From assembly GCF_030013595.1 (NCBI RefSeq), contig NZ_CP122769.1: a stretch of DNA of 64,000 nt; one strand, 5' to 3'. This document shows, in pieces, positions 48,101 through 54,100 of the stretch (positions are counted from its first letter, which is position 1; the number at the start of each line of letters is the position of its first letter). The position numbers were made by a program. This stretch comes from Escherichia coli (lineage in GTDB: Bacteria > Pseudomonadota > Gammaproteobacteria > Enterobacterales > Enterobacteriaceae).

Positions 48101-51100
48101 CTTTACATCCATTTTTTTAGGCCTGCCATTTATCTTGACGACATTATGTCTGTCATCAAAAAGAAATTCGTCCCCCTCAAAAGTGATTAATACAAATGGC
48201 CCCTCAGGCTTGGAAGTCCGGGGACTTCCCATTTTCAAAGTCATACTTCAGCCTCTCGATAGAACTCATGAAACCTCAAATTAAAATGGACTCACACCAC
48301 ACTGATTCAGTATTCCTCCTGAACCCCATTAGGCTCTGTTGTGATTTCATATTTAATACCGCCAGGTGCTCCCACAGCGTCCGCGACCGACTCACACAGC
48401 AGCGAGAGATCGTTGAGGGTCATTGGGTGTTCAATGTCCAGCGTGAAGAGTTTCCCGGCTTGCTTGGCGGCTGTCTTGTCAGCATGTTCAGCATTAAAAA
48501 GGTATACGGTGTGTTTTTCCTGAGCGGGGGTATTTTGATTTTGCATTGATGATCCTTTTGTTTAGTTCCCCGATTCCGGGGGTGAGTGAATTAATTTAAA
48601 TTTATATTTGTCTGGTTTAATTAGAACGTTTCCAGGCTATGCGTAAACAGGTAATGCAAAGGCTGTATCAACAGGATTAAAGTTACTTTTCTGGATGCAG
48701 CAACGCTTGGACATGATGTCCACATTACATCACGATCAAAGCTAAGTTTTTTTTGTATAACCCCTTCATTTTCGTGTGTTTCGCGTTTCAGACGCTTATA
48801 CGACCTGCCTGACCATCCTCATCAGAAGGCGGTTTAACAGTCCTTTCGCTGTCGGGCGATTGCTATCGACATAGTAAAAACCTGTTTTGGTCGTACCGTG
48901 AGCACTGCTCAGCACCCTCAGTTCCCAGATAACGTCACGGATAACGCCGCCATTTTCTGGCTTAAGGCATTCAGATAAATGGCGCATGAAACGAGCTCTT
49001 ACGGCACGGTAATAGCGGAACTCCTCTGGCTGGTTAGTATTTTCTTTCACCCGGAGTCGCTGGTTACACAGAGTTAGAACTGCATCCATCATTCCCGCCT
49101 TCAGCTTCGCCTGGATCGCACCTTGTTGCTGTTCCCTCTCACCTTCGAGTAACGTTAAGATTCTTTCTCCGAGTGCCGTCTTGTTGTGTACGTGCAACTG
49201 TACACAGGCAGCTACGCATGCCCAGAATCTGAACTTTTTTATCTGTCCACGCAATTTCCGGGCTACAACCTGACGGTATGCAGTATCGCTGAGTATTTTA
49301 AAACGCCGACTGGCAACCAGCTCTGGAAGCGACACTCTTTCGCCTATCCCCAGGCGGGAAAAGGTTTGTCCCCGTTGTGCGAGACGATGATAGACAGCGC
49401 CCTTCCCTTTTGAAATTCGGACCGCGCCATAACGAAGAAGATACTGAGCAGCAGTCGTTGGAGTAAACTCACCGTCAGCGATGCTCTGGCGTAACCCGTC
49501 GTATTCATGCCAGATAATCCAGGACGCCGTATCTTCTTCAACAGTCAGCTCATCCTCTTCCTCGAATGCCACGACGACAGAACTGCTCTCTCCGGTCTTT
49601 AGGCTACGTGAAGCCCTGGGGTCAGCCTGCCCGTCAAAATAGGTCATCAGCGGCAACGTATCAGTCAGTCCATCATAAGCTGTACCGAACCGGCCTCCGG
49701 GCAGTTTCATCCAGAGTGGAGCTGGCATTGGTGTACGGGCCACAGGCAGCATGTCAGGCTCATCCTCAAGAAGGTCCAGATCGGCCTCTTCCCAGACTCT
49801 GCGATAGATCTCAATTGCCCGAAACGGGCGAGGGTTGAAACAGTGCAACGACCAGAGGAAATCAACGTGGATCACGTTTGCTTCATGTACAAGCCGAAAT
49901 TGTGGCTCAGCCATACGACGGTTATAAGCCGTATCGTCCACCTCGCCGGAAAGTAGCTTTCTGCGATGCTTTGCCGCACGTCTGGCTTCAACATAATCAA
50001 GGCTGCAACAGACATGAAAAAGACGTTCAGTCAGGGACGAAGAAAAGATATTGGGTTGAAGACGCACATACCCGCCTTCGAACACTTTACGACCGATATA
50101 ATCCCGCAGGCTCCAGTCGTACTGGATCTTAGAAAGAAATCGCTGAAGACGACTTAGGCCTGCCTGATAACCATATTTCTCAGGGTCAGTGCGAAGGAGC
50201 GTTTCCATTGAATGGTCAACCCCTACGGCTGTGCAAAGCGAGCACCCATATCTAGCCCCACAAGCTGAGGTTCGCGTGGGTTTCTCCGGCGACCAGATAC
50301 ACTCTCCGGTGGCGTCTTTATAAAGCGTTGCCAGGCTGAAGTTATCCGGCATAAAGCTTGGTAAAGGGAAGCGGGATTCGGAACCACAGGCCATTAGAAA
50401 AGACCAGATGTCCTGAGTGCGCCACTCCTTTACTGGATAGAGTTCACCACCGTGCTCAGTCAGGGTTACTTTCCTCGCCTGCCCTCCCATTTTGAGGATA
50501 TTTCCGGCCCTTCGGGCACTTTCATCATCCCTGGAGCCCAGCATCAGGCATACCCTGCTTCGTACGGATGCCGGGGCGTTTTTTAGATAACGAGCTTTGG
50601 CCTTGCGCAGGGGGGCGATTTTGTAGTCGGTTGAGCACTGACGGGTTGAAGAATTAGTCCAGGTCGGAAGTCCACGTCCAGTCAGAATGCGGCCTACCCA
50701 GCTCTGCGTAAGAGACGGTTGGGCGACAAGGACTGTGACCGGTAGCTGGTGTTCAGCAATGAACATTCTAAGCTGGTTGAGAACCTGTGAAGCCTGATAG
50801 TGCATCTCAGGGTTTTCGATCAGCGTATCGGACATCTGAATGAAATGATGTTCGCTGATATTTGTGCCGTTACGTACTGCCCTGATCAATGCCATCAGAA
50901 ATAGGTGAAGAAGAGAATGGGAGTCTTTACCGCCACTGTATCCCACGCACATCGTCCATCCGTCCGTAATAGCCTGATAAATAGCAGATGTGGCTGACGT
51001 GACCAGAGAAGAAAGACTCACAGTCTCCTTTTCATCGGTATAGTTCAGATCGGCATCGGTTGTCAGGGTCTCCCAAACATCAGCCCATTTATCATGTTTC

Positions 51101-54100
51101 AAAATGGCAGCATTAGCCGCCTCAGGAAAAATAACTTCTGAGGGTAATTCAAGGAATGAGTCACTTTTTTCAATAAACATATATTTTCCTGAACCACGGC
51201 ATATGCTGCATCACTGATATTTTTATTAGAACTTTAAAATAACTACAGCGCAACCATTTAGCGAAATTATATTAAATCAAAATCACGCAAATTTAATTCT
51301 TAAATAGATTTAAAATAAAAACCCATTGTAATTTAATCTCCCAGCACAGCTATTAGATATAGGTTGGTGGTGTAATAAAAGCCGTGACATTTGTTTTCAA
51401 CTCAGACAGCGGAATTGAAGGAGTGTTAAGAGTCATGTCATCACCACAATGGCGTGGTAGAGCAGAAAGCTGAAATGAATCTTTCATCACCCTAATAACC
51501 GGGCATTCCGTACGTGCTGATGGCATTACTTCCCGCAGCATCGCTTCCTGCCTTGTGCTATCGCTATGCTTATATTCATCCTGGTCTGTTATTTCTTGAA
51601 TTTCATCTTCACCACAAAATGACCAGTTAGCGTCATAGAAGTAAAACTCAGTTAACTGAAGATCGTTTTTTTTCACGTATGTCGCCAATTTGCGGATACG
51701 CTGTTCAAGCATTGTATCTATCCGTAAGGAAACACTTTGCGGAACATCACTTGCAAAGTCATTGATGCAAACAACGGTAGATACTATGAATTTATTGGTC
51801 ATGGCAGGCTCCAGGCCACCGGGGGAACCGGTGGCTACGGTTATCAGGCAGGCTTATGCGCCGCAAAGGGTGTCAAGGGAAGGAAGAAGCTTGCTCAGCT
51901 TGTCGTAATCGAGCGGAGACAGTTCTGTAACGAGTTCGACCGAAAGACTGGTGTTGTCTTCTTCACTCAGAATATAGATTCCGTCTTCTGGCTCTTTTCC
52001 GGCACATGCCTTCAGTCGTCTGTTAACGACCTCCTGGGCTGAATCCGCTACGTCGCAGCTCAGGACATAGCTTGCCACATAGCTGCTCTCACCGTGGTAA
52101 TGCGTCACTTTACACAGAGCATACTGGATACCGGCTTTGTGAGCCTCATTCATGAGACGAGAAAACTGACAGCCATCCTGGTAATAGTGGGTATCCTTTG
52201 TGACCAGAATAGTCATACCCCCAAATTCATCTGTCCGGCTTTTACTGCATGTAAATGCAGCAGTAATTGTTACCATTTCCGGGAGGTCGAATACCGACAG
52301 CACGGCAGTTGTGAGGCAAATTGCATGGTCAAGATCAATAGTCTCTCCATGAAAAACTGACAGCCCACTGCTGTTAACTTCTGTTGCGAACGACAGTTCA
52401 TAATTACAGTCTGGGCAGGATGGTTGCCCAAAGCTCGGCTCTGAAGGGTCATACTCAGGGTGGTTCTCAATAATACTGAGAATCAGCTTCTCAGTCAGAG
52501 AACAATCTGCCAGTGGCTTATCAAGCAAACGCTCACCTTCTGCAATTTCTGCTTCGGTAACGAATGTGATTGCTTCTTGTGCCATTTTAGCCTGCTCCTG
52601 AGTGCAGGGAATAATAAACGACGCCAGAGTATAATTATCTGCCACAGTTGACTCCTTGATTATTTAATTAATGTATTTGATGAGAAGATCATAACAAACA
52701 CACTACTACCAACTAATAACCTGAAGTCGTTTTTTTAGAAAAAATATTAAGAAGAATATGAACACCACCTCATCTTAAATTAATATTGTTCAGGATTAAT
52801 ATTCATTTTTGCAAATAAAAACCGCCAGACGGCGGCTTTTATAAAGAGGGAAATATCATTGGAAGCTGAAATTACTTCACGGCAGGCCGACAAATTACGC
52901 GACTGCTGTGAGCTGAAGCGAAACTTGTAGAGGAAACTATAATCACCTTTTCTAAGTCGTCGGCACTGTCGGCAATATGATGCCGAAAAGCCTCCTCTGC
53001 ATCACCAGGGGAATCGGCTTCGACCGGGTAGGCCTGATCATCATCATCAAACATAATGCGCCCGGAAATGAGATAAAGTCGGCTCAAATCTGGCGTCGCT
53101 GCGCTCGTGCTTCGTTCGTTCAGATTCATTTTTTCTCCGTCTGTTGCTCGTAAAAAGAATGACGCCGGTTTAAAAGGCGTCGCCAGGGTTCAGGCTAAAA
53201 CGCAGGGTTGCCATCGAGGAAGCTCATTGGCTGGCCAATAGCGGATGCCACCCTGAGAATTTCACCTGGTGTGGCATAGCGCAGCATTTCTGAGCGTCCA
53301 AATTTCTGATACTCATCTACTGACATCTTTCTCCACTCGGGGTGAGGATCTTTTCCGCACAGTGACCAGTTGCTTTCAGAGGAATCACGACGGAGAACGT
53401 ACACATCAAGCGAGGCTGTAAGCCCGCTTCCATATCCCCGCTGCGCTACAATACGAACCTGAGAACCATCGTCGCGTTGCAACGTCTGGGTTAATTTCGT
53501 GATAGGATCCTGAGAATGCATGCCATTTACCTCGTTTTTAAAAGAATTACCGTAAGTAAATGATACCGAATCGAGAATTCTGGCTAATAGGTCAGAAGAA
53601 AAAATATTGCATATTTTTGAAGTGTAGGATAATGATTAGAATAAAATGGCCTGAATAAATCGTTAGCTTTAACTCTGCTTATTTCAGAAAAACTCTGAAT
53701 TAGTAGTGATGGAAAACGACGCGGTGAAAAGTAACTTTTACACCGCAATTCAGAAAAAAGTTTCAGTTAGTCACATTACGAATAACCCGGCTTACTTTCG
53801 CATGTGCGTTCCCCTGCATGTTAAAGTAAAGCCCTCCGGGCAGACTCGTCGCCCACTTAACGCCTCGCTCAGCCATACGCTTCGGTGTTTCCAGCCAACC
53901 ACGAGGAATATTGCCCGGAACGTTACCGATAACCCGTCAAATGCATGCTGCTACCCGGATGCCGCCGGGAATATCGCATTTGGATTCAACAATATGCATG
54001 ACCTCAGATAAAGCACCATGCCGCTGGACATGATCGCCAATGTGCAACTCGATAGGAGAAGCCATTTCTGAATCTGACTTCATATCTGTCCACCTTTAAT

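Follow-up and report, generated by a model that had tools for sequence, protein, structure and literature searches.

A solitary DndC-like PP-loop protein encoded on IncHI2 and other conjugative plasmids

Results

Three open reading frames on an IncHI2 plasmid backbone

We analyzed a stretch of 64,000 nucleotides of Escherichia coli DNA (assembly GCF_030013595.1, contig NZ_CP122769.1), called the window hereafter. The window is the backbone of an IncHI2 plasmid, and the element was typed as conjugative IncHI2A/MOBH/MPF_F. Three open reading frames (ORFs) on its minus strand encode proteins of 263, 149, and 794 amino acids (aa), and the 794-aa protein, a solitary relative of the DNA phosphorothioation enzyme DndC, is the subject of this work. 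According to the ORF listing the three genes are co-directional, with gaps of 51 bp between the 263-aa and 149-aa genes and 172 bp between the 149-aa and 794-aa genes. An original prediction, made from the sequence of the window, had proposed three co-oriented genes on a conjugative element as a candidate DNA-modification or defense module. The typing agrees with the conjugative nature of the element, and the three genes and the parts of the 794-aa protein lie as follows.

48796-51180, minus strand: 794-aa solitary DndC-like protein of the PP-loop/[4Fe-4S] type, ORF with stop codon (ORF listing; DndC hidden Markov model, HMM, matches; AlphaFold2, AF2, model)
50122-51027, minus strand: core homologous to DndC, with PP-loop ATP-pyrophosphatase domain and Cys-cluster region, residues 52-353
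50920-50937, minus strand: PP-loop motif SGGKDS, residues 82-87 (translation)
50233-50301, minus strand: Cys cluster CIWSPEKPTRTSACGARYGCSLC, C294...C307..C313xxC316, which together with C182 makes up the five DndC-conserved cysteines (translation)
49261-50121, minus strand: family-specific conserved module, residues 354-640, with invariant D395, E398, W443, and R603
48799-49260, minus strand: long-helix tail, residues 641-794, limited to the plasmid forms of about 800 aa
51353-51802, minus strand: 149-aa protein, function not assigned, a companion in the IncHI lineage
51854-52645, minus strand: 263-aa protein, function not assigned, a companion in the IncHI lineage and a non-obligate partner

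When the three-ORF segment was searched with megablast, 1,006 plasmid records matched, 585 of them at an identity of at least 99%. The matching plasmids, with hosts in Escherichia, Salmonella, Enterobacter, and Klebsiella, were typed as IncHI2A/MOBH/MPF_F. RefSeq annotates the same three coding sequences on identical plasmids; the 794-aa product (WP_000469466.1) is named "phosphoadenosine phosphosulfate reductase family protein", and the 149-aa and 263-aa products are named "hypothetical".

The 794-aa protein has a DndC-type catalytic core

DndC was the best-matching known family of the 794-aa protein, with an E-value of 4e-38 for the PADLOC DndC model and 6e-34 for NCBIfam TIGR03183. Weaker matches were obtained for BrxP (4.7e-6, 23 bits) and TtcA (2e-3), and the Pfam phosphoadenosine phosphosulfate (PAPS) reductase model PAPS_reduct (PF01507) matched marginally (3.7e-5) at residues 78-264. 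In the HMM libraries DndC was thus ahead of the other families by about 30 orders of magnitude. We also compared a family profile, built from a 76-sequence alignment, with a 543-aa DndC from a Salmonella dndBCDE cluster. With hhalign, residues 52-353 aligned to residues 23-317 of the 543 residues of DndC (probability 99.9, E-value 3.3e-33), and the motifs YSGGKDS, RxC(S/T)xxxKI, LGSRxxES..RA, GEC, and CGxR(F/Y)GCxxC lined up between the two.

Ten residues (S82, G84, K85, D86, S87, C182, C294, C307, C313, and C316) were invariant in the 76 relatives, down to about 25% identity; the catalytic apparatus is thus conserved and under selection. The five cysteines fall on the DndC motifs RWC, GEC, SCG, and GCWTC. 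E. coli B7A DndC has exactly five conserved cysteines, C146, C262, C273, C280, and C283, four of which were proposed in 2025 to be [4Fe-4S] ligands, while C273 is on a flexible loop (PMC12193691). C182, C294, C307, C313, and C316 of the 794-aa protein correspond to these in the same order, and the spacing agrees. In DndC the PP-loop serves ATP-pyrophosphatase/adenylation chemistry, and the five cysteines serve in holding and loading the [4Fe-4S] cluster. The AF2 model of the 794-aa protein had a mean predicted local distance difference test score (pLDDT) of 89.7 and a predicted template modeling score (pTM) of 0.81. Its sole internal low-confidence segment is the loop 304-308, which carries C307.

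The original prediction had described a canonical PP-loop with a Cys cluster downstream, and both were read in the translation at 50920-50937 and 50233-50301. It had also placed the protein in the PAPS-reductase/DndC/SspD family, and it counted a best match to tRNA-thiolation or sulfate-assimilation enzymes as one point against a DNA-modification module. The DndC models matched at about 1e-34 to 1e-38, versus 2e-3 for TtcA and 4e-5 for PAPS_reduct. By these scores and alignments, the core of the 794-aa protein falls within the DndC branch and outside the sulfate-assimilation and tRNA-thiolation branches. The same PP-loop core is matched at 7.5e-23 by the PADLOC "type II MTase" (methyltransferase) model of 544 aa, which suggests that there are fusions of the PP-loop core to DNA methyltransferases.

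The C-terminal half is specific to the family

The scores of the 794-aa protein were below the curated cut-offs for DndC. It scored 117.6 bits against TIGR03183, versus an equivalog cut-off of 290.4 bits, and 129.9 bits against NF005316, versus a cut-off of 536 bits. Since genuine DndC proteins are 540-543 aa, the protein is about 250 aa longer than DndC, in agreement with the excess length first noted. As had been claimed, it is also solitary: no Dnd, Ssp, or Dpd partner is annotated on the IncHI2 DNA that matches the greater part of the window, and no dndD or dndE was conserved among 72 loci of relatives.

DndC contacts DndD via residues 433-482 and its last helix (PMC12193691). The alignment with the 794-aa family ends at DndC residue 317 in hhalign, and the alignment with the PADLOC DndC model ends at position 398 of 468. 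The residues with which DndC contacts DndD therefore fall outside the region aligned to the 794-aa protein. Residues 354-640 are instead conserved throughout the family, with conservation reaching about residue 630 in all members, and this module is confidently folded in the predicted model. Residues 641-794 are long helices that were seen only in the plasmid forms of about 800 aa. A phmmer search of the C-terminal half against 1.84 billion representatives gave matches solely within its own family, and a fold search of the predicted structure detected no fold relative of the module at residues 354-640. The description of the C-terminal half as unassigned thus held in both searches.

These comparisons indicate that the 794-aa protein is not a DndC ortholog but belongs to an uncharacterized paralogous branch of DndC, found mainly on conjugative plasmids. 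The DndD-docking C-terminus of DndC has been lost, and a conserved module of about 290 aa that is specific to the family stands in its place, followed in plasmid forms by the helical tail.

The family is found mainly on conjugative plasmids

With tblastn, the family was found in 2,658 of 72,556 PLSDB plasmid records, and 78% of the carriers were predicted to be conjugative. The plasmids include IncHI2, IncHI1-like, IncC, and other types, and there are also chromosomal loci in diverse bacteria. Copies in IncHI2 plasmids are near-identical, and a second group, including Q935R1 of Salmonella Typhi, is about 75% identical. Copies in IncC-sized plasmids have 47% identity to the 794-aa protein, and more distant plasmid copies were found in Aeromonas, Proteus, Burkholderia, Cupriavidus, and Pseudomonas. 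Protein searches added a form of 669 aa, from KorB-encoding plasmids of about 76 kb, and metagenomic forms of about 600 aa. A scan with one genome per species gave 67 loci, mostly from Burkholderiales, Pseudomonas, and other Proteobacteria. The 50,697 phage records searched gave one full-length match, an IncC plasmid mis-filed among the phages. Phages are thus essentially without the family, which is tied mainly to conjugative plasmids rather than to mobile DNA generally. The family is already present in databases, under a generic and misleading metabolic name.

The 149-aa and 263-aa genes are companions in IncHI-type plasmids

Neither the 149-aa nor the 263-aa protein had a match in Pfam, NCBIfam, PADLOC, or PHROGs. 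In the IncHI-type locus L005, where the enzyme is 52% identical, the block is kept as a 268-aa homolog and a 278-aa paralog of the 263-aa protein, a 150-aa homolog of the 149-aa protein, and the enzyme. The 263-aa family is therefore duplicated in L005. The order of the block is kept there although other genes shared by the arrays have been relocated, and the companions are 31-34% identical to those in the window (33% for the 149-aa homolog). Homologs of both companions are also encoded on one contig with a 74%-identical enzyme, and in an IncHI1-like element a syntenic homolog of the 149-aa protein is about 60% identical.

The companions were not found in the IncC, 669-aa-form, Photorhabdus, Aeromonas, and Halioglobus loci. 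When a 263-aa-family profile was run, the 67 chromosomal loci gave no match, and among the 72 loci of relatives only L005 matched. When the ORFs at the 72 loci were clustered, no neighbor family occurred in more than 13 loci. The original prediction had listed conservation of the three-gene cluster as a check; this check went against it, as the 149-aa and 263-aa genes accompany the enzyme in IncHI-type plasmids only. We therefore rejected a conserved three-gene module. By their distribution, the two genes are lineage-specific genes of the array that do not belong to a conserved system, although co-transcription with the gene of the 794-aa protein is possible.

A distant homolog of the 263-aa protein (25% identity) is encoded directly 3' of psiA on a Klebsiella MOBH/MPF_F plasmid (NZ_CP132737.1; L083, 5015-6759), and no DndC-like gene lies within 6 kb of it. 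This adjacency suggests that the genes of the 263-aa family are themselves of the leading-region type. A distant homolog of the 149-aa protein is encoded in an array of the Thalassospira plasmid NZ_CP004389.1 (L082, 5992-12387), about 4.7 kb 5' of the gene for a short, 357-aa PAPS-reductase-family protein. Three methyltransferases are encoded in the Thalassospira array as well, one Dam-like, one of the C5 type, and one further site-specific enzyme. PAPS-reductase-like genes are thus repeatedly paired with DNA methyltransferases, which fits the PADLOC "type II MTase" model that contains the PP-loop core.

The commonest neighbor family (13 loci) is a 296-aa Burkholderiaceae protein with no function assigned. 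Its gene lies about 76 bp 5' of the enzyme gene on the same strand in 13 Burkholderiaceae/Pseudomonas loci (for example L024:1654-2544), and the protein matches PHROG 15826. Remote homology between this protein and the 263-aa protein was rejected (hhalign probability 0.2%). By eye, its motifs DNGAW, GGSTxWK, HVGRVNS, and SFDG.S.SR recall transglycosylases of the tRNA-guanine transglycosylase (TGT)/DpdA type. Searches of Pfam, NCBIfam, PADLOC, and PDB sequences did not support a DpdA/TGT-like enzyme, and PHROG 15826 was the only match. Two further candidates for Dnd partners were rejected. The 355-aa gene 5' of the Aeromonas enzyme is not a DndB homolog; it matches domains of giant-phage proteins, some annotated as methyltransferases. 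An SMC-like ATPase of Burkholderiaceae had just a weak N-terminal P-loop match to DndD.

The gene array and its regulatory motifs

The three genes are part of a run of small genes of about 35 kb on the opposite strand, transcribed towards Tra1 and mobI/oriT. The presumed origin of transfer (oriT) is next to mobI, followed by mobH/traI and traD, upstream in the window at about 18-29 kb as estimated from a matching plasmid record. In the F paradigm, leading-region genes are oriented towards oriT. The orientation of the array is that expected of leading-region genes.

In the IncHI2 array there are two methyltransferase-like genes, an HNH endonuclease gene, hok with sok RNA, and a RelE-family toxin gene. 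The sok antitoxin RNA (Rfam RF01794, 81 bits) is at 40510-40668 on the minus strand, and matching plasmids annotate Hok in the corresponding array. The original prediction had noted a beta-class methyltransferase within 3 kb. Its 416-aa gene is 1.7 kb from the 263-aa gene, RefSeq names the product "site-specific DNA-methyltransferase", and SPPY precedes DPFAG in the protein, the motif order of the beta class. The adjoining 206-aa ORF (55783-56403, minus strand) is annotated as hypothetical and weakly matches folds of SAM-dependent methyltransferases or aminopropyltransferases (spermidine synthase, 1e-5; RsmA, 6e-3). It may be a second orphan methyltransferase. About 1 kb 3' of the DndC-like gene, a 188-aa protein with an HNH endonuclease motif (47154-47720, minus strand) has weak matches to HNH proteins of retrons and of the Septu PtuB type.

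The arrays of relatives hold C5 and N6 methyltransferases, a primase, RadC, DUF4942, ParB_N, NADAR, and LigD, and methyltransferases are also encoded around the relatives in IncC and Aeromonas arrays. On the plasmids of about 76 kb with the 669-aa form (L007 and L008), a DGQHR/DndB-family gene (6488-7558; TIGR03187, 1e-46) lies two genes 5' of the enzyme, with no dndD or dndE alongside. Such neighbors are typical of plasmid establishment and anti-restriction genes (PMC11541004). In sum, the array is co-directional towards oriT and has the hallmark neighbors, namely orphan methyltransferases, hok/sok, and, for the 263-aa family, a psi gene. On NZ_CP073623.1 (L001, 7893-8174), the PLSDB resistance predictor calls a 93-aa hypothetical protein of the array "Brucella suis mprF" at 100% identity; this label looks like an annotation artifact.

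Around the three genes, the following further features were found.

51181-51352, minus strand: AT-rich 172-bp gap 5' of the DndC-like gene; it contains a perfect TATAAT and is a possible promoter of that gene alone (sequence read)
52659-52686, minus strand: sigma-70-like promoter match 5' of the 263-aa gene, 9 of 12 positions (consensus scan)
48679-48689, strand not applicable: palindrome AAAGTNACTTT, 107 bp 3' of the stop codon of the 794-aa gene, candidate operator marking the next unit
53728-53738, strand not applicable: palindrome AAAGTNACTTT, the nearest copy upstream of the DndC-like gene, 5' of a 108-aa ORF
54364-55614, minus strand: orphan beta-class N4/N6 DNA methyltransferase, 416 aa, in the same co-directional array (PADLOC MTase_II, 1.2e-46; SPPY before DPFAG)

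The palindromic 11-mer AAAGTNACTTT, usually followed by T, had 43 strand-matches in the window, versus 1.7 expected and a maximum of 5 in shuffled sequences. There are 21 sites (for example 2950, 15015, 34492, 43741, 45948, 48679, 53728, 57940, and 63143), at least partly intergenic, in both the Tra region and the small-gene array. The repeat looks like a candidate operator of an IncHI2 global regulator. Since there is no copy between 53728 and 48679, the 108-aa, 85-aa, 263-aa, 149-aa, and 794-aa genes may form one regulatory unit. The consensus scan did not call a promoter in the gap at 51181-51352. Sigma-70-like matches in the region were not more numerous than in shuffled sequences, and the match at 52659-52686 is weak evidence for a promoter.

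A second intergenic repeat, CTAATAACCTGA, occurs on the plus strand, exactly at 45011, 52713, and 60238 and with one mismatch at 42707. It reaches about 33 nt in some copies, and the copy at 52713 is 67 nt 5' of the start codon of the 263-aa gene. A terminator-like hairpin is found at 52821-52833, after the 85-aa ORF that precedes the 263-aa gene.

Discussion

Comparison with known systems

The 794-aa protein is most similar to DndC (DptC), with which it shares the catalytic core over about 300 residues and all five cysteines, and which is its best HMM match. Unlike DndC, it is encoded in arrays of conjugative plasmids rather than in defense islands, and dndD, dndE, dndB, and dndA are not adjacent. 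In a reappraisal of Dnd systems by comparative genomics, no close PP-loop ATPase was known to be able to replace DndC (PMC10853773). SspD, the PAPS-reductase-like ATP pyrophosphatase of the SspABCD single-strand phosphorothioation system, has a PP-loop but does not depend on DndD and DndE, which shows that such a core can be re-partnered (PMC12707154). SspD is in the same superfamily as the 794-aa protein, but no SspD match was obtained at an E-value of 0.01 or lower in PADLOC or NCBIfam, and no sspA, sspB, or sspC gene is annotated. BrxP of type 4 BREX matched weakly (4.7e-6, 23 bits), and no BREX genes are annotated near the 794-aa gene.

The "PAPS reductases" of phages and prophages (PHROG 424, 12882, and 2302), some of which are regulated by Aca and proposed to be anti-defense genes, are likewise solitary PP-loop genes in variable regions of mobile elements with no function assigned. 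They differ in that their matches are weak (1e-9 to 1e-13) and cover the PP-loop domain only. IbrA and YbdN are DndC-like PP-loop proteins outside Dnd systems that are paired with the ParB-like IbrB and YbdM. The 669-aa plasmid form, two genes from a DGQHR/DndB-like gene, resembles this arrangement, while in IncHI2 plasmids there is no adjacent ParB/DndB-like gene. Finally, the orphan methyltransferases and establishment genes of leading regions (PMC11541004) are also found in co-directional arrays of conjugative elements, with orphan methyltransferases, hok/sok, and psiA (the last for the 263-aa family). Those methyltransferases depend on S-adenosylmethionine, whereas the chemistry of the 794-aa protein is predicted to depend on ATP and an Fe-S cluster. 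What appears to set this DndC paralog apart is that it is decoupled from DndD and DndE, has a new C-terminal module, and has a conjugation-specific distribution.

A possible role in plasmid establishment

We propose, with a probability of about 0.4, that the 794-aa protein is a nucleic-acid sulfurtransferase that is independent of DndD and DndE and that aids plasmid establishment or the evasion of restriction. The protein would draw sulfur from the host cysteine desulfurase IscS, a sulfur source that DndC can use (PMC8569181). With ATP it would activate either a phosphate or a base position of a nucleic acid, most probably DNA of the plasmid itself. Substrate binding would fall to the new C-terminal module, and the protein would be self-contained, acting without DndD and DndE. 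The benefit would be accessory, helping establishment or restriction evasion in some recipients, and would not be needed for replication, maintenance, or transfer as such. A more specific form of this proposal, in which a single polypeptide thiolates the DNA backbone or bases, with the C-terminal module replacing DndD and DndE, and marks arriving plasmid DNA so that it escapes restriction, is doubtful.

Several points weigh against the proposed role. Its weakest link is autonomous DNA modification. Genuine DndC phosphorothioates DNA only together with DndD and DndE, and autonomous modification would therefore be unprecedented. The C-terminal module had no recognizable DNA-binding fold in the fold search. 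Some 30 kb separate the gene from the presumed oriT, and "leading region" is thus a putative label for this array. The activity itself is predicted from sequence, and our literature search found no paper on this plasmid protein.

Moreover, the gene seems to be dispensable. In 348 of the 1,006 matching IncHI2 records (about 35%) the segment is not intact, and the carriers are still typed as conjugative. In one lineage (NZ_CP030186.1; L079, 1501-5524), a deletion associated with the insertion sequence (IS) IS903B extends from the 3' part of the 149-aa gene through roughly the first 311 codons of the enzyme. In another lineage (CP020529.1; L080, 3001-5402), the match breaks off inside the enzyme gene, with an integrase gene further on. 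As read from these records, the DndC-like gene has been inactivated independently in circulating IncHI2 plasmids. In a transposon sequencing (TnSeq) study of the entry of an IncC plasmid into restricting, CRISPR-positive Vibrio cholerae, only the vcrx087-094 locus was reported as required (PMC7498323), from which the IncC homolog would not be required in that host. Because of the disrupted copies in conjugative plasmids and the IncC result, we consider the gene to be accessory and likely to matter only in some hosts.

Alternative explanations

The substrate might be RNA, for example tRNA, or a small molecule, as for the PP-loop/[4Fe-4S] enzymes TtuA, NcsA, and TtcA. Thiolation of RNA could benefit a plasmid by altering host translation or by protecting tRNA from anticodon nucleases after entry. 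We consider this unlikely, since the DndC models match at about 1e-34 to 1e-38 versus about 1e-3 for TtcA, and all five DndC-specific cysteines are retained together with their flanking motifs. The neighborhoods are also rich in DNA methyltransferases, and one of them has the DndB/DGQHR gene.

Rather than modifying DNA, the 794-aa protein might interfere with the phosphorothioate immunity of the host (Dnd or Ssp), by diverting sulfur from IscS or by acting on the phosphorothioation machinery or on phosphorothioate-sensing nucleases, and so aid entry into Dnd-positive or Ssp-positive enterobacteria. Dnd clusters do occur in the same hosts, such as the Salmonella dndBCDE cluster. A 2026 preprint names Aca-regulated phage PAPS reductases as candidate anti-defense genes and cites a phage PAPS reductase that aids the evasion of Dnd. 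However, the DndD-binding surface of DndC is not conserved in the 794-aa protein, and thus competition for DndD or DndE is unlikely. The strictly invariant catalytic residues indicate catalysis and not mimicry, and the family is absent from phages. Interference with host immunity is therefore quite improbable.

The original prediction had also raised the possibility of an uncharacterized defense system. In such a case the 794-aa protein would be the modification half of a plasmid-borne defense or exclusion system, and an unrecognized effector would attack unmarked invaders. The PADLOC DndC models match the protein, the HNH endonuclease gene lies about 1 kb 3' in the array, and the SMC-like ATPase of Burkholderiaceae is encoded upstream in 10 loci. 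On the other hand, no nuclease or effector is conserved with the enzyme across lineages, and no complete known defense system is present. Loss of the gene is frequent and shows no trace of addiction to a partner, and its context is typical of establishment arrays and not of defense islands. With no restriction partner at the locus, a defense role is without support, and we regard it as highly unlikely.

An ordinary assimilatory reductase of PAPS or adenosine phosphosulfate (APS), carried as a metabolic cargo gene, can be dismissed almost entirely: the RefSeq family name and the best PDB fold matches (APS/PAPS reductases) point to one, but Pfam gives just a marginal match (3.7e-5), the protein has three times the length of CysH-type enzymes, which are about 240 aa and have a C-terminal catalytic cysteine motif ECGLH that is missing from the 794-aa sequence, the DndC set of cysteines is present instead, and no sulfate-assimilation genes are annotated nearby.

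Implications

The gene is carried on the backbones of IncHI2, IncHI1-like, and IncC plasmids that spread mcr-1, carbapenemases, and other resistance genes. If the 794-aa protein modifies plasmid DNA as proposed, this would add a new chemistry to the routes by which plasmids cross restriction barriers, and it would mean that a DndC core is able to work without DndD and DndE. If a single polypeptide does carry out the thiolation, no sulfur-based anti-restriction modification would have preceded it, and it would also be the first case of a DndC-type enzyme phosphorothioating DNA independently of DndD and DndE. Alleles disrupted naturally by IS elements are in circulation on IncHI2 plasmids and are ready-made controls. 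Even if the protein has no detectable effect on DNA, the family would still be a large, uncharacterized branch of PP-loop/Fe-S enzymes that is tied to conjugation.

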